IMG/VR virus record: IMGVR_UViG_3300010206_000038 | Span: 1-56,164 of that record | Length of the DNA stretch: 56,164 bases | Origin: a virus | Taxonomy: Duplodnaviria; Caudoviricetes | Reading direction: 5' to 3' (one strand) | Shown: positions 2,791 through 56,164 of the stretch, piece after piece | Layout of the letters: the number at the start of each line of letters is the position of its first letter | How positions within the stretch are numbered: the first letter of the stretch is position 1 | The notes under the pieces: model-generated | The model's input: the letters and a program-made list of their open reading frames with translations, nothing else | What the model was told of the DNA's origin: nothing | Database searches by the model: none | Position numbers and translations under genes: made by a program

Positions 2791-3589
2791 TGGGGGCCTC
2801 CAATCGACGGATGTCCTGCTCGGCGATCTCGCAGAAAAAGCTGCACGAAATGTCGGGCTCATCTTCGTATCGGCCTTTGTCGGGTGGCAAATCCTTGAGG
2901 CCGTACCGTTCGCCGGTGGCGCGATCGCGGAAGGTGTAAGTCCCTGGGCCTATCGATTCCTGAATCTCCATTATGGTCTTAAAGCGCTCGGGCCAGACGC
3001 GGCGGACCTTGTTCCAATAGCCCTCACCGCCCTTGCAGCAGCCCATGCAATTGGCGTTGTGAAAGCCAAGCCGATACGGGGCCGGAAGCTCAATCCCGGC
3101 CCGCTCGACCATAGCGAGGCAATCGGCCTTGCCCAGTCCGGCGTCGATCAGCGGGGCGCTGACGTGCAAGTCGGGCCAGCGCTCGCAGAAATCGTCATAG
3201 CGGTCTTGCTCTTCGGCGGTATAGCCGAGAACCATGACGTCGTCCGGGCGCTTAATAGCGTCCAAAATTTTACGCTTGAGTGCGCGGCTGCATTCCGCTC
3301 CGTGTCGGCTCGCAAAAAATTGGTTTCGCCGCCAAACCTCGTCGGTCGAGGCCCCGTATTTCTGATCTGCCAGGACGGTAATCGACCGCCCAAACCACCT
3401 TTCGCAGTCGGCCAGGAAACGGCGGTTGTCGGGATGCTCTTCGCGGATAAACGCGTTGATGATGAGCACCTCATTCCTCCCCCAATGAGCCGCGATGGCG
3501 AGCTTTGTTGCCACGGCCGAGGCGGCACCGCACGAAAACTGGCAGACGACGCGCTGCTGCGGACCGAGGCGGATGATGTCAGCCGACAT
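2780..3589 (-). CDS. Phage PAPS-reductase-like (PP-loop) protein
   Basis: FSCGAASAVA PP-loop-like start; GF.NANC.GCCKGG.GYW Cys cluster; C-terminal CSFFC. Confidence 0.75.
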   Translation of the reverse strand: MSADIIRLGPQQRVVCQFSCGAASAVATKLAIAAHWGRNEVLIINAFIREEHPDNRRFLADCERWFGRSITVLADQKYGASTDEVWRRNQFFASRHGAECSRALKRKILDAIKRPDDVMVLGYTAEEQDRYDDFCERWPDLHVSAPLIDAGLGKADCLAMVERAGIELPAPYRLGFHNANCMGCCKGGEGYWNKVRRVWPERFKTIMEIQESIGPGTYTFRDRATGERYGLKDLPPDKGRYEDEPDISCSFFCEIAEQDIRRLEAPNVR

Positions 3590-8977: not shown

Positions 8978-9517
8978 TCAGACCTCCACCAGCTTGAGGG
9001 CGATCAACGCCACCACGTCGGCGACGGTCTTGATCCCTTCGGCTTCGTCGTCGGTGATTTCCCGGGCGAATTCGTCCTCGGCCGCCATGACGAGTTCGAC
9101 CTCGTCCAGGCTGTCGGCGCCAAGGTCTTCGACGAGCCGGGCCTCGGGCGACACCTTGTCTTCATCGACGCCAAGGTGTTCGACCAGAATGTTCTTCACG
9201 CGCTCGAAGGTGCTGAGCGGCGTGACCTCCCCGCGCGCCCGGGCCACGACGCGCCGCAGTCTCGCTCCCAATTCAGGCGCGTCCGCATCGGCGGCTTTGT
9301 CCCAGCGGGCCATAACGCTCTCCAGGACATCCAGCATTTCGTCCGACGTCGCGAATAGCGCGGCATTGGCATCGGATGCGGCAGCCCCGCCATACGCCTC
9401 GCACAGAGCGGCAACGATCGCGAGCGGCTGGCTCCCGGTCGAGCCGTCAACCGGCACGATCCACCGATCTGACATGCGCCGCTCGACGCGGAACGGGCCT
9501 TGGGTATGGGTGCCCAT
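8978..9517 (-). CDS. Fusion of a phage HT(P/Q)GP(W/F)-type domain to a C-terminal acyl carrier protein domain
   Basis: C-terminal ~80 aa [16 protein letters not shown]...[21 protein letters not shown]...IKTVAD is AcpP-like with an intact DSL serine. Confidence 0.88.
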
Positions 9518-10374: not shown

Positions 10375-10416
10375 ATCATGCTGCATACTTGCATCGTTAG
10401 TCAATGCATAAATGCA
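10375..10416 (-). promoter_or_regulatory. pL promoter with left operators (TGCA-N4-TGCA x2)
   Basis: Minus strand TTGACT-N18-CATGAT; palindromes at 10382-10393 and 10405-10416. Confidence 0.75.
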
Positions 10417-10505
10417 TTATCGTTTGCAGCCGAATTGCATCGCCACCCGACTCCCCGGATCAGCGTTGGTGCGATATGATTTCGGCTCCCAGTTCGGAGG
10501 ATCGG

Positions 10506-11048
10506 ATGCGCTCTGCTCTTGTTGCCCTTGCTCTGCTTGCCGCCACTCCTGCGCTGGCCGGACAGACCGTCAGCCTTGAGGCGCTATGCTTCACGCCCGG
10601 GGGAGACTGTACGGGGGTGATCGTCGATCAGATCGGCAAGGCCCAGCGCCAGGCGCTTGTGCAGGCGTACAACTTCACCGATCCGGCCATCGTCAAGGCG
10701 CTGATCGATGCCAAACGGCGCGGCGTTGATGTCCAAGTGGTAATCGACCGGGTGAACGTCTGCGCTGAAGACAAGCCGGTTTGCCGGGCATCGGGGGCGG
10801 TTGCGGCCGGGCTGATCGCTCGGGCTGGTATCCCGCTGTCGATCGACCGGGTCGAGAAGATCGCTCACAATAAGGTAATGGTGATCGACGGACACCGGGT
10901 TATCACCGGCAGCTTCAACTTCAGCCAGAGCGCCCAGAAGGCGAATGCAGAAAATCTGCTGGTGATCGAGGACGAGGCGACCGCCCGCCGCTATGCCGAG
11001 AACTGGCGAGCGCACCAGGGGCACAGCGACCCTTACGCGGCGCGGTGA
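10506..11048 (+). CDS. Secreted phospholipase-D-family nuclease (Nuc-like, single HKD)
   Basis: Signal peptide ending ALA; FTPGG, QAYNFT and HNKVMVID...GSFNFS...NAEN motifs. Confidence 0.9.
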   Translation: MRSALVALALLAATPALAGQTVSLEALCFTPGGDCTGVIVDQIGKAQRQALVQAYNFTDPAIVKALIDAKRRGVDVQVVIDRVNVCAEDKPVCRASGAVAAGLIARAGIPLSIDRVEKIAHNKVMVIDGHRVITGSFNFSQSAQKANAENLLVIEDEATARRYAENWRAHQGHSDPYAAR

Positions 11049-11251
11049 TGATTGCCGATCCCGATATCTGGCGCTCAGCCAAGCTGCTGGTCGATCAGCA
11101 TGGAGCGGATGCGACGTTCCATGCTGCCCAGCGCGCCGACGAGTTGATGTCGGCCGGAGACACCGAGGGCTGGGAGGTATGGAGACGGATCGCCCGTGCG
11201 GTGGATGAATTGCTTCGGGCAAGCCCAAAGCCGGGGGAGCGGTGGCACTGA
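11045..11251 (+). CDS. Small helical protein (DUF6961-like)
   Basis: DIWRSAKLLVDQHG.DA..HAAQRAD.L...GD.EG..VWRRI. Confidence 0.7.
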   Translation: MMIADPDIWRSAKLLVDQHGADATFHAAQRADELMSAGDTEGWEVWRRIARAVDELLRASPKPGERWH

Positions 11252-11254
11252 AAG

Positions 11255-11276
11255 AAAACCCCGCCGAGGCGGGGTT
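11255..11276 (-). terminator. Intrinsic terminator between convergent genes
   Basis: AACCCCGCC-GA-GGCGGGGTT stem; the A-run on + gives a U-tail on -. Confidence 0.75.
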
Positions 11277-11354
11277 GGGGGCTTACGCGGGATGCGGGTT
11301 AGTGGGACACCACCACCCTGGCGATGGCAAAGACTAAGCCGTCATAGTTCCCCC

Positions 11355-12278
11355 TTAAATTAGCGGCGGGGGTGATGATGGCAAATTTCTTTTCAATTCA
11401 TTAATTTCATCACGACCAATCCAGTTTTCACTTATATATTTCTTGTATTTGTCAAAATCAGTCGCAATGACCATGGACGAAGCGCGCATTCCTGTGTTAG
11501 GAATAACCTTACTGAATTCAATAATGTTTATCGTCCTTTTTTTCCATGGTGTAAGTACAAGCTTTATATTCATGTTAATGGGGATTGACTTTAGTTCGAA
11601 GAATTTTCCACTTTCGCCATTAACCTCTATTTCAGCGCCAAATTTTTCAGCGAATAGACGCGCCATATACACAAGTGATGTTGCCGCGCGCGTGTCGATC
11701 ACGTGGCCATAAATACGCCAAGCTTGACGCACGGTCAGCATCATTCCATCTCGGCCTGCAATTACTAAAAGACCGAAATTGCGTGCAGGGAATCTGTTGG
11801 TAAATACCCTGAAAAACATTGACACCAGTGGCTGGTCTTTAGGGTCGTTTCCGCGCCCATAATGTTGTTGTCTATCAGGCAATCGAATGGTCGCGGTGAT
11901 TAAGTCACGTTCGAGCAGACTAAATTTTCCAAGATTTTCCAGCAGTTGCGGATCGATAAATATTTCATACATGTCAGGAGGCAGGTCACCACGCTCGGCT
12001 AAGCGCAGCAAGGCGGCCTCAGTATCGATCGGCCCCGTCAATTCATCAGCGGCAGTATCCAGATAGTCACTAAGACGGGCGACAGTTTCCCCTGATTCGT
12101 CATCCTCGGTCGCTCCAATCTTTCGCCGCGCCTCGGCGATAAGATGTGATCGGATATCCATTTCATTTGCCACGACGGGCTCAGCTGATGGATTGCCGCG
12201 CTGATCCAAAGACAGGCAAGCCCTTGCCAACACCCCGACTGCGGCGTCCTTATCCAAATGGGCGAGAGATTTCAGCAT
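11355..12278 (-). CDS. AT-rich hypothetical protein, 307 aa (candidate defence effector)
   Basis: Long ORF, visibly AT-richer than flanks; GGAGG RBS; 3 bp from the upstream gene. Confidence 0.8.
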   Translation of the reverse strand: MLKSLAHLDKDAAVGVLARACLSLDQRGNPSAEPVVANEMDIRSHLIAEARRKIGATEDDESGETVARLSDYLDTAADELTGPIDTEAALLRLAERGDLPPDMYEIFIDPQLLENLGKFSLLERDLITATIRLPDRQQHYGRGNDPKDQPLVSMFFRVFTNRFPARNFGLLVIAGRDGMMLTVRQAWRIYGHVIDTRAATSLVYMARLFAEKFGAEIEVNGESGKFFELKSIPINMNIKLVLTPWKKRTINIIEFSKVIPNTGMRASSMVIATDFDKYKKYISENWIGRDEINELKRNLPSSPPPLI

Positions 12279-12281
12279 GGC

Positions 12282-12779
12282 CTACCTCCTCCTCACCTCG
12301 ATAATGTCAAATTCGTGCCGCCGCAAATCGCGAATCTGCAACTCTTCACCCTGGCTGGCGCGTTGACCTCTGGGCACACGAATCAGCCGTGACTGCACCA
12401 GATTCCTAGGGATAACATATACGACCGGAGTCCATATTGTCCAAGATGTCGCGCGGATCTCCGCGAAGATCTCATCCCGGTCAGTGTCTGATATCATCCC
12501 CCTGGAATACCAATCGCGAGCCAGACGCTTAAATGTTTTACGATATCCGCTAATTAGCGGACTGTGATCGTCCGGTCGGTCCACTGTATCGCGCCATGCC
12601 GTCTCGTAAATTTCAGCGGGGCTCGAACTTGCCGGAATCATCGAACCGGGGGAGCCGTGTGCGGCCATACGGGGATCAAACCACTCCGATACCCAAGCAA
12701 AATAGACATGGTTTCTATGCCGTCCTGTCAAATCGACTGCGAAACGTGGATTGGTTGAATAAAGAACTGGTGATGTCAT
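12282..12779 (-). CDS. AT-rich hypothetical protein, 165 aa
   Basis: ORF tightly coupled to the 307-aa gene. Confidence 0.8.
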   Translation of the reverse strand: MTSPVLYSTNPRFAVDLTGRHRNHVYFAWVSEWFDPRMAAHGSPGSMIPASSSPAEIYETAWRDTVDRPDDHSPLISGYRKTFKRLARDWYSRGMISDTDRDEIFAEIRATSWTIWTPVVYVIPRNLVQSRLIRVPRGQRASQGEELQIRDLRRHEFDIIEVRRR

Positions 12780-43335: not shown

Positions 43336-43707
43336 ATGATGCGGGAAGTGATCGCGGCGGCGATTGTGGCGTTGAGTCTGGCAGGGTGTGCCAACGTCGG
43401 AAATAAACAGATTGTCGATAACAATAATGTAGCAAAAATAAAAGCGGGGGAAACAACCAAAGATCAGGCAAGGGCAATTGTTGGAGAACCGTCTAAGGTA
43501 ATATTCTCTGACAGCGGAGAAGAAACTTGGGAATATGAGTTTTCTTCGTACAGATCAAATCCCGCTCAATTCGTCCCAATCGCAGGGCTTTTTGCCTCCG
43601 CTGACGTCGAAAAGCACACCCTCACGGTCAGGTTTAGACAGGACGGTATCGTGAAGGAAGTTGGAAAGGGTCGTGTGACCGGCAAGGCGGGCGGCCTTGG
43701 GGAATGA
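43336..43707 (+). CDS. Lipoprotein, BamE/SmpA/OsmE-like (moron)
   Basis: Lipobox LAGC; IKAGETTKDQARAIVGEP...WEY...LTVRF..DGIV; AT-richer. Confidence 0.85.
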   Translation: MMREVIAAAIVALSLAGCANVGNKQIVDNNNVAKIKAGETTKDQARAIVGEPSKVIFSDSGEETWEYEFSSYRSNPAQFVPIAGLFASADVEKHTLTVRFRQDGIVKEVGKGRVTGKAGGLGE

Positions 43708-44672
43708 CCAGCGAAAGGGTGAGCGGCAGAATTCGCGAATGGCTGATCCGTGTGTTTTCGCGCGCGATCAGCGGAGTATCGAACGAGGATGACCGGCGCG
43801 AAATCGCGGACTGGCTTGTCAGATCGCGGGATATCCTAGCCGGAGACGGAACGAAGAGAGAGAAGTTCACGACACTTTACGGGCTGATGGATACTCGAAA
43901 GACGGTCAAGGTCTTCGCCCACAGCGTCGTCGAGACTGTCAAGAACTACAAAAACGCCGACCTGCCGCTTCCGGTGAAGATCGCCATCCCTATAACGCTG
44001 TTCGCAGCGCCGTTCGTCGGCGGACAGGGCGCAGGCGTGGCCGCCATCGGAGGTGCTATCGGCCTTCCCGTGCTGCTGTTGATCTTCCTGGGGACCGCCG
44101 GTATCACGGCCGTTCTGGAAAGCTTCACAACTCACAAGGACTCGGCACCGCTCGTAATGAGCATCCTCGGAATCATCGCTGAAGACGAAATTTCTCGGCG
44201 CGTCAGTGCGGCGATGAAAGCCGCGATGAGAGACGATCCGACCGAGTCGAAGCGGCTCAAGATGCCCCAGGCCGACGACAAGCTTCGCCAAAAGCTGTTG
44301 GAGATGGACCCGTTCGATTTCGAACGACATGTCGTCAGTTTTTTCAGCGTCGCCGGGATGGAAGCCTGGGTGACGCGAAAGTCGAACGACTTCGGGGTTG
44401 ATGGGTTCGCACGGGGCGTTGATGGACTGATCGTCATCCAGTGCAAGCGGTATGCGCCCGACAATCCAATTGGGGGTCCGGCTGTTCGCGAGTTCAAGGG
44501 GGTGATTGAGGAAAACGGAGCGGCGCGCGGCTATCTGGTCACGACATCAAGGTTCACTGCGGATGCGGTGAATTCCGCAGAAAAATCGTCAACTCTCGAA
44601 CTGGTGGACATGGACGTTTTAACGCGATGGCATGCTGATCCACCGTTCAAAACGTCGAAGGTAGCGGGCTAA
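43704..44672 (+). CDS. Membrane-anchored Mrr-like restriction endonuclease (moron)
   Basis: MDPFDFE...SNDFGVDG...IVIQCKRY...VTTSRFT Mrr_cat motifs; central hydrophobic Gly-rich hairpin. Confidence 0.88.
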   Translation: MTSERVSGRIREWLIRVFSRAISGVSNEDDRREIADWLVRSRDILAGDGTKREKFTTLYGLMDTRKTVKVFAHSVVETVKNYKNADLPLPVKIAIPITLFAAPFVGGQGAGVAAIGGAIGLPVLLLIFLGTAGITAVLESFTTHKDSAPLVMSILGIIAEDEISRRVSAAMKAAMRDDPTESKRLKMPQADDKLRQKLLEMDPFDFERHVVSFFSVAGMEAWVTRKSNDFGVDGFARGVDGLIVIQCKRYAPDNPIGGPAVREFKGVIEENGAARGYLVTTSRFTADAVNSAEKSSTLELVDMDVLTRWHADPPFKTSKVAG

Positions 44673-53113: not shown

Positions 53114-53289
53114 TGGATATCGTTCTCGCCGCGCTCAAGCTGGCCCCGCTGGTGATCCAGGCGGGCCAGGACTTCGCCGCGTTCGTCGCCCGGGTCGAGG
53201 CGGCGGCCAGCCGCACCGACGGCCCGACCAACGCCGACTGGGATGCACTTCACGCCCTGGAGGCCGAGTTGCGGGCGCGGCTCGGATAG
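53113..53289 (+). CDS. Small amphipathic protein, 58 aa
   Basis: Translated by hand (MDIVLAALKLAPLVIQAG...); GGAG RBS; coupled to the lipoprotein gene. Confidence 0.6.
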   Translation: MDIVLAALKLAPLVIQAGQDFAAFVARVEAAASRTDGPTNADWDALHALEAELRARLG

Positions 53290-53327
53290 TCACCAGCCCC
53301 TGACGGCCATCCGCCGAATAGTCACCA

Positions 53328-53359
53328 GCCGCCGGCCCTTCACGGGGTCGGCGGCTTTT
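53328..53359 (+). terminator. End-of-late-operon terminator
   Basis: GCCGCCGGCCC-TTCACG-GGGTCGGCGGC followed by TTTT. Confidence 0.8.
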
Positions 53360-53405
53360 GTGATTCTGGAAGCAAGGCGATCACCGCGTCTGCCAATTTC
53401 CACAC

Positions 53406-53522
53406 CTATTCCGCCCGAAACCACCCGCTCGGATCGGCCCCCATGCCGCGCTCATGGGCAATCCACCGCGCCAGATCGATAGCCTCTGACATGGGGTCGA
53501 TCGTCTCTCTTTTTCTGGACAT
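53406..53522 (-). CDS. Small hypothetical protein, 38 aa
   Basis: TGATG coupling to the Zn-ribbon gene; translated by hand. Confidence 0.4.
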   Translation of the reverse strand: MSRKRETIDPMSEAIDLARWIAHERGMGADPSGWFRAE

Positions 53523-53695
53523 CAAGTTTCGGGGAACATGGCTTTCGTTGCACTGTCGAGTTCAGTCCGAAGAGAGGTGATTTCGCCGGTATCTTTGAAC
53601 CTGATATGGACATCGTATTCCCATCCGCATTTGCAGCGGATCAGGCTTTCGGTGAGAGGGCAGCCGCACTTGGGGCAATTTCTGATGTCAGCCAT
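53522..53695 (-). CDS. Small Zn-ribbon protein
   Basis: CPKCG...CKCG; AGGGG RBS. Confidence 0.65.
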   Translation of the reverse strand: MADIRNCPKCGCPLTESLIRCKCGWEYDVHIRFKDTGEITSLRTELDSATKAMFPET

Positions 53696-53714
53696 TGTTG
53701 ATCCCCTGTTAATG

Positions 53715-54046
53715 GAGTGCCCGAGGCTCGCACCGTGGGTGTCCGCCTCGGGCTGACGGGGGCTACACCCCCTTGGTAGGATGGGCTGGACCACTCGCTT
53801 CCCACCCCGGCTACTCGGCATGGTCGGCGGTTAATCGCCTTTCGGCTCCCGCAACGTCCGCCGGATCACGGGCCTAAGCCTTGTCCGTCCGCCCAACTCT
53901 CGACTGCCTCTCGGCAGAAAGTGTGATGCCAGATCAGGTCCATTGTGGTCCTATCGGGCTTGCCGACGTATTTGGGCTGCAATGGCCGTCCTGTCACGCC
54001 TGTCGGCGTGAAATTCTCCGGCCTATCGTCCCCGGCCGGGTGGGGT
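53715..54046 (-). ncRNA. Candidate structured non-coding RNA or long leader
   Basis: Eight or more helices, two GNRA-capped on the minus strand; no convincing ORF. Confidence 0.5.
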
Positions 54047-54047
54047 A

Positions 54048-54147
54048 GTGGGCTGGCCGGGCTTGATACCGGCTTCCGCGTTTCACGGGGTTACTCCTCA
54101 GCGGATCACGTCAATATCACCGCACGTCCTTCCGTGCCGCCGCCCAC
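54048..54147 (-). ncRNA. C4-like (tRNA-like) phage RNA
   Basis: GTGGGC/GCCCAC closing stem; GCACG-GAAGGA-CGTGC arm; TCCGC/GCGGA arm; GCCGG-TATCAAGC-CCGGC T-like arm. Confidence 0.65.
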
Positions 54148-54154
54148 GCCGGAA

Positions 54155-54373
54155 TTATACGTTGCCGCCCGTGCCAGTCGCAACCATCCGGTCAAGGCCC
54201 ACCTTGCGCGCCTCAGCCGCCGTCGGGTTGTCCTTCCCGAACCATTTGACCGCGAACGCCCGTTGTCCCGCGTCATCGTCTATCGCCAGAAATTCGCGCA
54301 CGGCATCGGGGCCAAGGGCGATGATCGAGAGGACGGACTGAACGTCGAAGCGGCTAAGTCCGAATAGAGACAT
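54155..54373 (-). CDS. Small hypothetical protein
   Basis: AGGAG RBS. Confidence 0.65.
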   Translation of the reverse strand: MSLFGLSRFDVQSVLSIIALGPDAVREFLAIDDDAGQRAFAVKWFGKDNPTAAEARKVGLDRMVATGTGGNV

Positions 54374-54409
54374 TGGTTTCTCCTATTGATTTACGTTCCG
54401 CAGATCACT

Positions 54410-54630
54410 TCAGGCGTCAACAATCTCCTGGTCGCGCACATCGAGCGCGGCGCGCAACCGCCGAACCTCGGCCAAAAGCCGGGCGATATCATCAATCGAT
54501 TCCTCGATCATATCACCTTCGTCTGGGCCGAAATATTCCATGGAGCAGCATGATTTTGCGGCGATCTTTGCCCGCGACTCGATCTCGCATAGGTCGGCGT
54601 CGGTAAGGGGGTGATGCTGGGGGCGGTCAT
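54410..54630 (-). pseudogene. Frameshifted small phage gene (LTD..L.EIE.RA...LLAEVRRLR family)
   Basis: Coupled ATG at 54630 is one base out of frame with the recognisable body; C5 run at 54607-54611. Confidence 0.5.
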
Positions 54631-54875
54631 ATCGTGGGGAGCCTATTTCTTTGGGCGATGATAGTGGCAAGGCGCTCGGCATCTGCGAGCAGATTATTCA
54701 TGTGCCGACGGATGATCGCCACTTTGGTCGGGTCTGGCTCAGTGTCGGCGATTGCCTTCAGGATTCCGCAGGCGTAGGCAATCGGGCCGGTGAATAATTC
54801 TATGTCGTCCGCAGCCTGGGGCGACACTGCCCGGATCGGGGCGAGGCTATCAGAGCTATGTGTCGCGTCGGTCAT
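54627..54875 (-). CDS. Small hypothetical protein divergent from int
   Basis: GGAGGA RBS. Confidence 0.6.
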   Translation of the reverse strand: MTDATHSSDSLAPIRAVSPQAADDIELFTGPIAYACGILKAIADTEPDPTKVAIIRRHMNNLLADAERLATIIAQRNRLPTI

Positions 54876-54919
54876 GTCGTGTTATCCTCCGACCATTCGT
54901 CTTTTTGCAAGGGACCGCC

Positions 54920-56164
54920 ATGCCGGTTCGGAAATCATCATATACCCCGAAGGATGGAAAGCCGGGATGGGTCTGTGATTATAAAGATGCGGCAGGAAAG
55001 CGCCACCAGGAGGCGTTCTCCACCAAGAAAGCTGCCGATGCTCGGTTCTCCGAAGTGCAGGCGCAGATCCAGCAGGGAAAGCACGTTGCCAACAGCGCGA
55101 CTGTCACCGTGCAGGCTGCCTATGAACTTTTCATCGCCGCAATCGAGGCTGATGGCGCGGCCCCATCCACCGTTAAGGGGCACACGCTGTATTACAAGAA
55201 CCATGTCGCGCCGTTCCTGGCCGACAAACGCCTCACGATGATCGCCCCGGCGACGGTTCAGGGCTATCTCGACGACTTGCGCGAGAGCGGGCGCAGCGAC
55301 GACACGATCAATCGGGCGAAACAGACGCTCGGGACGATCATCGACGAGGCGGTCAGGACGGGCCGAGCCGCGTTCAACCCGGTTCGGTCGCTGAAATCCC
55401 GCCGCCGCGTCCGCCGCAAGGATATCGAGGACCGGACGGCACGATCGTCTGCCGTCATCCCAGAGCGATCCGACGTCAAACTCCTGATCGAGGGTGCTGA
55501 CCCGGGGCGCGTGTGGAAGACAGGCGGCGGCCCAGTGTCTGCGGCGAAGTGGCTTCAGCCGTGGATGGCGTGCATCGCGTTCGCTGGCCTGCGTCCGGGA
55601 GAGGCGCGCGGTCTGACCTGGGCGGCGGTCAACTTCGACGCAGGCTTCATCGACGTTCGCACGGCGGCGGACGGGTTCGGAAACCTTGGACCGGTCAAGA
55701 CAGCGGCTGCGGTGCGGCGCGTGCCGATCGGCGACATCCTGGCCGGTATGTTGCGGGATTGGCACGAGCGATGGGTATGGAACGCCCATGACCTCGTGTT
55801 CGCGACCAAGGGAGAGCAGACGGCGGAGGGAAAGCCGCCTCTTATCAGTCTGTCGAACGCGCTTCGACTGCAATTTAACCCCCTGCAAAAGCGACTCGGT
55901 CTGGTCGATGACGCTGGCGATCCCCGCTATACGCCCCACAAGCTGCGCCACTTCGCCGTCTCGCTTTGGATCGACGAAGGGGCGGACATCAAGCAGATAT
56001 CGCAGTGGGTGGGGCATGAGAGCGTGGCCTTCACGATGGACGTTTACGGGCACCTGTTCAGGGCGCGGGCACTCGACCGGACGGCAGCGACGGCTGGCGA
56101 AATATCAGTGATGCAAGCTGCGCTGCCGGGGCCGGAGGAAAACGAAGATTCCGAGGACTCTTAG
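54920..56164 (+). CDS. int: Tyrosine integrase
   Basis: N-terminal arm-binding-like domain; catalytic R (GLRPGE), K (PVKT), HKLRH, VGH and Y (DVYGH). Confidence 0.95.
   Translation: MPVRKSSYTPKDGKPGWVCDYKDAAGKRHQEAFSTKKAADARFSEVQAQIQQGKHVANSATVTVQAAYELFIAAIEADGAAPSTVKGHTLYYKNHVAPFLADKRLTMIAPATVQGYLDDLRESGRSDDTINRAKQTLGTIIDEAVRTGRAAFNPVRSLKSRRRVRRKDIEDRTARSSAVIPERSDVKLLIEGADPGRVWKTGGGPVSAAKWLQPWMACIAFAGLRPGEARGLTWAAVNFDAGFIDVRTAADGFGNLGPVKTAAAVRRVPIGDILAGMLRDWHERWVWNAHDLVFATKGEQTAEGKPPLISLSNALRLQFNPLQKRLGLVDDAGDPRYTPHKLRHFAVSLWIDEGADIKQISQWVGHESVAFTMDVYGHLFRARALDRTAATAGEISVMQAALPGPEENEDSEDS

Follow-up and report, generated by a model that had tools for sequence, protein, structure and literature searches.

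A conserved phage RNA motif with a covarying closing stem and a nearly invariant core in the non-coding leader beside a provirus integrase gene

Introduction

The C4 antisense RNA of phages P1 and P7 and the CI RNA of P4 are small phage RNAs that are cut from an operon leader near the immunity/integration region, and both are built as a closing stem with internal hairpins. The put RNA of HK022 acts in processive antitermination. Further structured RNAs are found near the tRNA genes of phages: skipping-rope RNA (RF02924) is one such conserved and covarying element, and theta ribozymes, which are minimal HDV-like ribozymes, have been reported beside phage tRNAs, whose 3' ends they free (PMC10879173). 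Last, a catalogue of 8495 csRNA candidates has been drawn from IMG/VR; these are short covarying intergenic motifs, some of them tRNA-like or gene-adjacent (PMC10690425).

In this work we consider a window of 56,164 nucleotides that constitutes an IMG/VR provirus record (IMGVR_UViG_3300010206_000038) with a completeness estimate of 95%. The provirus is of the siphovirus type, with a gene-transfer-agent-type tail module, S24 repressor, terminase, portal and capsid all present, and several small minus-strand ORFs lie between the last plus-strand late genes and the integrase gene. The original prediction, made from the letters alone, had singled out 53715-54046, the middle of a 459-nt gap among these ORFs, as an undescribed structured RNA of some 330 nt. 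The features of the region are as follows:

53696-54154: non-coding gap of 459 nt between two minus-strand ORFs (72-aa and 57-aa)
54155-54373, minus strand: 72-aa ORF upstream of the leader
54154-54183, minus strand: promoter-like site TTGCGA-18 nt-TATAAT
54048-54147, minus strand: element 2, a second conserved structured RNA of 100 nt, just upstream of motif 1
53895-54047, minus strand: spacer with local hairpins at 53994-54011, 53940-53985 and 53904-53917
53783-53894, minus strand: motif 1, a conserved element of 112 nt
53719-53772, minus strand: pair of GC-rich hairpins that separates motif 1 from the next ORF
53522-53695, minus strand: 57-aa Cys-rich ORF (CxxC...CxC), the first ORF downstream of the leader
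54920-56164, plus strand: tyrosine integrase gene (int) at the right end of the window

Element 2 resembles C4 and CI RNA in having a closing stem and hairpins and in standing at the 5' end of an int-proximal leader. The original prediction had accordingly called this neighbour C4-like, and while a real conserved RNA does lie there, the family name did not hold: the Rfam C4 model matches neither element 2 nor motif 1, with no hit at E<=10 in 53200-54500 or in the 411 nt of 53770-54180, and none at the gathering threshold window-wide. Also unlike C4, complementary target sites were not seen downstream in an unsystematic look, and motif 1 occurs in many contexts that have no relation to immunity. 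Motif 1 shares with theta ribozymes (PMC10879173) its small structured form and a position, in places, directly downstream of the tRNAs of phage arrays; it differs from them in being a rod with an outer closing stem, in giving no match to HDV-like models, and in that 33 of its 46 copies lie away from tRNAs. It is likewise akin to skipping-rope RNA in being conserved, covarying and carried by phages near tRNA genes, but its sequence and structure are unrelated, its invariant core is much longer, and its carriers are phages of two bacterial phyla. The csRNAs are similar in kind and in their IMG/VR origin, and motif 1 may already be an unnamed entry among them; three words of its core are absent from the searchable supplementary files of that catalogue, outside of which the alignments presumably lie (PMC10690425).

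Results

Coding content and setting of the gap

The original prediction held the stretch to be non-coding, and this proved correct. From about 53810 to 54110 the gap displays no frame-specific GC pattern, and neither the ORF list nor a frame check offers an open frame with a credible start; a hidden or decayed gene was considered and rejected. The upstream 72-aa ORF has a coding-type GC pattern, and its sole match among 5.8 billion proteins (size class 39 to 126 residues) is itself. The downstream Cys-rich ORF carries AGGGGA 7 nt ahead of its ATG as a Shine-Dalgarno sequence of its own, and gave a sub-threshold Pfam match to UPF0547 (E 0.037) and one weak 24-residue match in a protein search. 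Its 99-aa extended frame yielded nothing in Pfam or PHROG beyond the Cys motif, and a protein search with a 123-aa ORF found no relatives. The promoter-like site overlaps the stop codon of the 72-aa ORF and agrees with the consensus at 10 of 12 positions, a match to consensus alone; the scan found one site, with 0.6 expected. Its -10 hexamer is followed 7 nt later by the closing stem of element 2. Among sequencing runs, the locus occurs in the probable source metagenome and in no RNA run.

At the other end of the leader, no minus-strand terminator was called after motif 1. The two hairpins at 53719-53772 appear in minimum free energy (MFE) folds, lack U-tracts, and have no homologues by blastn among the loci fetched in this work. 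More broadly, 53400-53782 gave no credible match, the one 21-nt hit (E 0.02) lying in the Cys-rich (Zn-ribbon) ORF. The spacer at 53895-54046 matched nothing beyond chance in 186 fetched loci, phages and plasmids, and as a candidate third family it was set aside, given no phage match and plasmid matches only at E 0.4, inside ABC-transporter genes. A search for direct repeats or iterons returned only short two-copy chance families. The three tRNAs at 25.5 kb are the only ones that ARAGORN and Rfam find in the window, and none lies at 53700-54150.

Folding of the predicted stretch

On the minus strand, 53715-54046 folds at -151.3 kcal/mol (z -3.12, with 1 of 100 shuffles as good), as opposed to a z of -0.83 on the plus strand, where 20 of 100 shuffles do as well. 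The entire gap gives z -2.62 (minus) and -1.28 (plus). In 200-nt sliding windows on the minus strand, z runs from -2.7 to -3.3 at 53600-53849 and from -2.3 to -3.0 at 53850-54099; flanking coding windows of this size lie between -2.0 and +1.8. The structure of the stretch is modestly above chance and specific to the minus strand, so that the dense folding that had been proposed stands for this strand and not for the other. Nor does it stand for the conserved element by itself: motif 1 alone has a z of -0.61, a stability matched by 48 of 200 shuffles. Lineage-specific hairpins account for the excess, together with a long-range helix that is not conserved, and motif 1 is distinguished by its conservation and not by its thermodynamics.

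The helices of the original prediction (53719-53727/53745-53753, GGGGG/CCCCC at 53758-53772, GCC-GAAA-GGC at 53837-53846 and CTGCC-GAGA-GGCAG at 53904-53917 on the minus strand, 53994-54011 and 53940-53945/53980-53985) are all present in the sequence, as are the complementarities 53891-53896/53972-53977 and, with a 1-nt bulge, 53801-53811/54035-54044. As elements of RNA structure they fare less evenly, in that the GAAA hairpin at 53837-53846 belongs to the family structure described below and no other listed helix does.

Relatives and carriers of motif 1

A blastn search of phage records with 53400-54400 matched nothing. The neighbouring proteins were also of no use as anchors, the small flanking proteins being orphans and the cargo being different where the integrase has relatives. 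The integrase itself had no match in genome or viral contigs; the 80 loci with integrase relatives from a metagenome alignment scan share no DNA with 53300-54920, and the closest of them (L009, 70% identity) has different cargo upstream. At that locus two small overlapping ORFs (2858-3473, minus strand), which resemble a toxin-antitoxin pair of the BrnT/BrnA type, stand directly upstream of the integrase in place of an RNA leader.

The first relative came from a low-stringency blastn of 53600-54200 against plasmid records, the single hit of which (E 3e-5) is a 105-nt match on p1 of Azospirillum argentinense, flanked by ORFs for a tyrosine recombinase and a DNA-methylase-like protein. The two copies have three blocks in common, and their closing bases differ yet remain complementary. 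These blocks were made into exact patterns and scanned across sequence collections: the 5' block was found at 7 genome and 21 viral loci, the 3' block at 6 genome and 22 viral loci, and gapped two-block patterns at 2 genome loci and at 27 and then 7 viral loci, with the proviso that these sets overlap, many entries being one place found twice. Two more carriers emerged when one copy was compared by blastn with phage records, namely Microcystis phage Mwe-JY13, with a full copy, and Streptomyces phage Braelyn, with a minimal one situated between a tRNA and gp125; in four related Streptomyces phages the match covered only 27 nt. Aureimonas flava and Agaricicola taiwanensis also have full copies.

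A covariance model (R1) built on 31 sequences gives 46 hits in 50 sources, representing 45 distinct sequences carried by IMG/VR phage contigs, seven alphaproteobacterial records, Mwe-JY13 and Braelyn. The window holds a single R1 hit, at 53774-53904 on the minus strand (107.5 bits, E 3.9e-29, full model length). Four loci found by pattern only (L092, L130, L142, L145) were dropped, as they lack the other core block and R1 does not match them. The searches required exact conserved blocks, such that divergent members are under-sampled and the invariance of the core is partly built in. However, the 3' block is nearly invariant in copies found through the 5' block alone, and vice versa; since each block is conserved where the other was the seed, the conservation of the core is not only an artefact of the search. 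Between phages of Alphaproteobacteria and a Streptomyces phage the core is nearly identical.

Rfam 15 has no family for motif 1 in the window or at 12 other loci, whether at E<=1, <=5 or <=10, and at the gathering threshold the whole window yields only the three tRNAs. In particular, no Rfam model of a self-cleaving ribozyme (hammerhead, twister, twister-sister, pistol, hatchet, HDV-like, hairpin) matches motif 1. A full-text literature search found no description of it. A possible mimicry of rRNA, or pairing with it, was rejected after six copies had been compared by blastn-short with a 6.5-kb contig that bears the rRNA operon of a carrier genome; no match exceeded 11 nt or had an E below 0.1. 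By every test applied motif 1 is a new RNA family, and the expectation of an undescribed minus-strand phage RNA outside Rfam is borne out, though for 112 nt of the stretch.

Structure and covariation of motif 1

The family has the shape of a rod, in which a covarying closing stem is followed by two nearly invariant core strands and by an apical domain that may be long, short or absent. As delimited by the R1 hit, the alignments and the pair counts, its parts in the window are the following:

53887-53894 and 53783-53791, minus strand: 5' and 3' strands of closing stem P1, with a bulged A at 53787
53868-53886, minus strand: 5' core strand, nearly invariant
53812-53867, minus strand: optional apical domain, containing the GAAA hairpin
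53837-53846, minus strand: GCC-GAAA-GGC hairpin at the tip of the apical domain
53792-53811, minus strand: 3' core strand, nearly invariant

P1 is 8-13 bp long across the family and reads GGGC-GGAC / GUCC-A-GCCC in the window. Its inner four pairs may be GGAC/GUCC, AGAC/GUCU, CGAC/GUCG, CAAC/GUUG, CAGC/GCUG, GGGC/GCCC or CAC/GUG, and just below these, on the 3' strand, an unpaired A, AG(U) or ACCA is common. The consensus is GGACAAGGCUNNGGCCCGU for the 5' core strand and CCGGGRUGGGWAGCGMGUG for the 3' core strand; the window copy has both strands in order and agrees with the consensus at all invariant columns of the structure-blind alignment. After the 5' core strand comes a short covarying stem that leads into the optional domain, with its conserved GUGG.../...CCAC stem and a terminal hairpin that varies in both stem and loop (GCC-GACA-GGC in Azospirillum, GGC-UACG-GCC in Agaricicola). 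Minimal copies (L099, L120, L137, L177 and, in Braelyn, L182) have no apical domain, and 4-15 nt join their core strands. Their MFE folds are rods with GCU/AGC and CCCG/CGGG pairs and two purine-rich internal loops, and on this model the core strands would form two short invariant helices separated by such loops. A small alternative core hairpin, GGC-UNNG-GCC, would fit the data equally well; the core helices never vary, so that the covariation described below does not bear on the core pairings.

Covariation among homologues had been named beforehand as the test of a conserved fold, and it is strong. In the structure-blind MAFFT alignment of 31 sequences (A4), 94.0% of cells at the 22 modelled pairs are able to pair, versus 82.6% when shuffled; compensatory changes occur in 11 of the 22 pairs, with 72 cells changed on both sides, and the covariation score of 0.304 stands against 0.111 for shuffles and 0.038-0.077 with the partners slid. 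The model-fitted alignment of 45 sequences (A5) gives 95.3% versus 80.2%, compensatory changes at 13 of the 22 pairs (132 cells changed on both sides), and a score of 0.358 against 0.116 and 0.037-0.069. Not one of 500 shuffles of either alignment reaches any observed value. Eight of the 22 pairs are invariant or vary on one side only. In P1 of the 45 sequences, columns 15/170 are CG in 16, AU in 13 and GC in 11, columns 16/169 are GC in 34, AU in 8 and CG in 2, and columns 17/168 are AU in 35 and GC in 8. G-U pairs are frequent (columns 13/173 have 8, and columns 38/146 are U-G in 30 of the 45 sequences), which makes the fold specific to the strand of motif 1.

Genomic context and copy number

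In the fetched flanks, tRNA or tmRNA genes lie on the same strand as motif 1 at 13 of 46 loci and on the opposite strand at none, the other 33 having no tRNA nearby. At six loci a tRNA within 60 nt upstream ends 1-30 nt before the stem, six have a tRNA or tmRNA within 60 nt downstream, and some copies are packed between tRNA genes without any ORF. In Braelyn (1058-1133 of the fetched locus, about 92044-92119 of the record), a sequence that scores 32 bits with the Rfam tRNA model ends about 30 nt upstream of the motif; this candidate is unannotated in the record and is not called by ARAGORN. Some further RNA genes were noted in the vicinity of motif 1: tmRNA genes within 25-900 nt (L116, L121, L137), a skipping-rope RNA on the strand of the motif, some 260 nt downstream (L105, 1562-1633, minus), and a sub-threshold YrlA-like hit (L101, 69-179, plus).

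By a crude GC3-based gene call that is noisy and miscalls the window, both neighbours are co-directional with the motif in 24 of 44 loci and the upstream one in 34 of 42. Several loci have 15-45 nt between the stem and the start of the next ORF. There is no constant gene neighbour, in that no flanking protein family is common to more than three loci (ORFs from 41 loci), and the Pfam names of 29 flanking ORFs are diverse, among them integrase, Mu Gam, capsid, DNA methylase, vWA-TerF-like and head-tail attachment protein. Six genomes were tested for copy number: all five phage records of 103-171 kb, and the 56-kb provirus studied here, hold one copy each. An exception is the 35-kb contig IMGVR_UViG_3300033076_000850, where two inverted copies (L102 and L110) lie about 8 kb apart with almost identical closing-stem sequences and different apical domains. 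Within one alphaproteobacterial order, 1 of 151 genomes has motif 1, that one being the carrier itself. Motif 1 is phage-borne and sporadic.

Element 2

A blastn of the flanks of the gap against all fetched loci matched 54055-54143, the eight hits falling in seven locus entries that amount to three distinct motif-1 contigs, several entries being one place. The element so delineated has these parts:

54142-54147 and 54048-54053, minus strand: closing stem of element 2
54122-54137, minus strand: hairpin with a GAAGGA loop (GAUGGA also occurs in the family)
54056-54073, minus strand: invariant hairpin, separated from the loop hairpin by a variable middle

In an RNAalifold prediction on six sequences, 14 of 20 pairs keep their pairing through double changes. 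A model of the element (R2) scores 101.3 bits in the window at 54040-54151 on the minus strand; it also matches L091, L117, L149 and L101, in all four of which element 2 adjoins motif 1, and L109 weakly. No Rfam family corresponds to it. R2 detects a further copy in Komagataeibacter phage phiKX2, with int and a tRNA-Met as neighbours and a terminator-like, U-run-bearing hairpin after it, and another on plasmid p1-AD2 of Roseomonas mucosa. The order of the two elements differs among phages, and each is also found alone. A pattern search for element 2 in alphaproteobacterial genomes was discarded: 56 of 401 genomes matched at <=1 mismatch, none of 30 fetched loci scored with R2, and the pattern word also reads as ordinary coding sequence.

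Discussion

Most intergenic hairpins of phages are lineage-specific, whereas the core of motif 1 is kept nearly base for base in phages whose hosts differ at the level of phyla. An invariant core within a stem that changes by compensation is characteristic of ribozymes, riboswitch aptamers and RNP cores, and the element behaves as a movable single-copy gene, often among tRNA and tmRNA genes. The 459-nt gap is best described as a minus-strand non-coding leader in which two independently conserved small-RNA modules are joined by lineage-specific hairpin spacers. The explanation that we favour overall, with a probability of about 0.5, is that of a leader with two RNA modules in which motif 1 would be a discrete small RNA that binds a conserved partner. 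It is reasonable to postulate that motif 1 is made as part of the flanking transcript and then acts as a discrete small RNA, which, judged from sequence and context, comes close to an even chance without quite attaining it. In tRNA arrays, the enzymes responsible for maturation of the abutting tRNAs might also release motif 1, and its invariant internal loops may bind a partner that is supplied by the phages themselves or is conserved from one bacterial phylum to another. In the present phage, the promoter-like site at 54183-54154 would drive expression of motif 1 along with that of element 2 and the Cys-rich ORF. A single copy per genome, free relocation among operons and packing among tRNA genes argue against both a gene-specific riboswitch and a general punctuation signal, and agree with a small-RNA gene that uses its invariant loops to contact a conserved partner.

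A bolder form of this proposal, which we regard as rather unlikely, is that motif 1 represents a new functional class of RNA, one that is catalytic or else binds a universally conserved cellular machine with high affinity. If true, it would constitute a freely relocatable single-copy RNA gene, the roughly 40-nt core of which is nearly unchanged between phages of Actinobacteria and Alphaproteobacteria, and together with element 2 it would turn the leader near int from a UTR into a cluster of small-RNA genes. As some carriers (Braelyn and its relatives, Mwe-JY13) are cultivable, a function could be assigned by simple experiments.

Several other explanations deserve to be weighed. Motif 1 could be a self-cleaving ribozyme of a new class, or the target of a dedicated RNase, that is cut at its own border so as to free the 3' end of an upstream tRNA or mRNA. 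The six loci at which the stem starts 1-30 nt after a tRNA 3' end would accord with such a role, as would the short spacers between co-directional ORFs that it occupies elsewhere and a core that is host-independent and nearly invariant, as is expected of a catalytic center. Against this, permissive Rfam searches with ribozyme models included returned no family, the topology is an outer closing stem on a rod and not a nested double pseudoknot, and the approximately 40 invariant positions exceed the usual need of small ribozymes. Given also that one copy per genome is not what a general punctuation signal would show, and that most loci have no tRNA nearby, we consider cleavage an improbable function.

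A role in cis only is less probable still. Here motif 1 would be a metabolite-binding riboswitch aptamer, or an RNA that modifies RNA polymerase in the manner of put, and would control read-through to the two hairpins and the Cys-rich ORF. Its core is as conserved as that of an aptamer, the closely following ORFs at several loci would be suitably placed for control, and the window copy lies about 250 nt after the promoter-like site and just before two strong hairpins. These points are outweighed by the mutually unrelated nature of the downstream genes, by copies flanked solely by tRNA genes, which control no ORF, by a closing stem that is clear of the ribosome-binding sites in the copies inspected, and by no terminator-like site having been called on the minus strand here.

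The original prediction had joined the approximately 330 nt into a single RNA or switch, with a pseudoknot and with long-range and local helices in competition. The stability of the stretch on the minus strand, and an MFE fold that does form 53801-53811/54035-54044, speak for it. Only motif 1 has homologues, however, while the spacer and the downstream hairpins are without relatives, and both of the special pairings draw upon bases that the family consensus commits elsewhere: one arm of the pseudoknot (53891-53896) is the 5' strand of P1, and one side of the long-range helix (53801-53811) is the invariant 3' core strand, a complement to which occurs within 300 nt in 4 of 44 other loci versus 5 for a reversed control. 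The pseudoknot and the long-range helix are not supported, since they use bases of the conserved stem and core, and the single-RNA model is very improbable. Equally hard to credit is that motif 1 works as DNA, a hairpin or cruciform for a recombinase, primase or packaging enzyme, for despite its proximity to int here, to a tyrosine recombinase gene in Azospirillum and to HNH or terminase genes in some phages, and despite the contig with two inverted copies, its strand agrees with local transcription in 13 of 13 tRNA contexts, its many G-U pairs become A-C mismatches on the other strand, its stem varies around a conserved interior (the reverse of inverted-repeat recognition sites), and its genome position varies.

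Other observations in the window

Three further regions of the provirus merit mention. At 43336-44672 (plus strand), inside the tail-gene block, an ORF for a BamE-like lipoprotein and one with an Mrr_cat restriction-endonuclease domain stand between a tape-measure-sized ORF and the DUF2460/BR0599 tail genes, and look like an inserted cargo pair. The region 10404-12779, probably recently acquired cargo, comprises an ORF with a PLD-like nuclease domain and a DUF6961 ORF, followed by two minus-strand ORFs (11358-12779) that have no Pfam hit and a GC3 of 0.45-0.54, versus about 0.7-0.8 elsewhere. Last, an early-region ORF at 8981-9517 (minus strand) encodes a phosphopantetheine-attachment (PP-binding) domain, an unusual feature in a phage.
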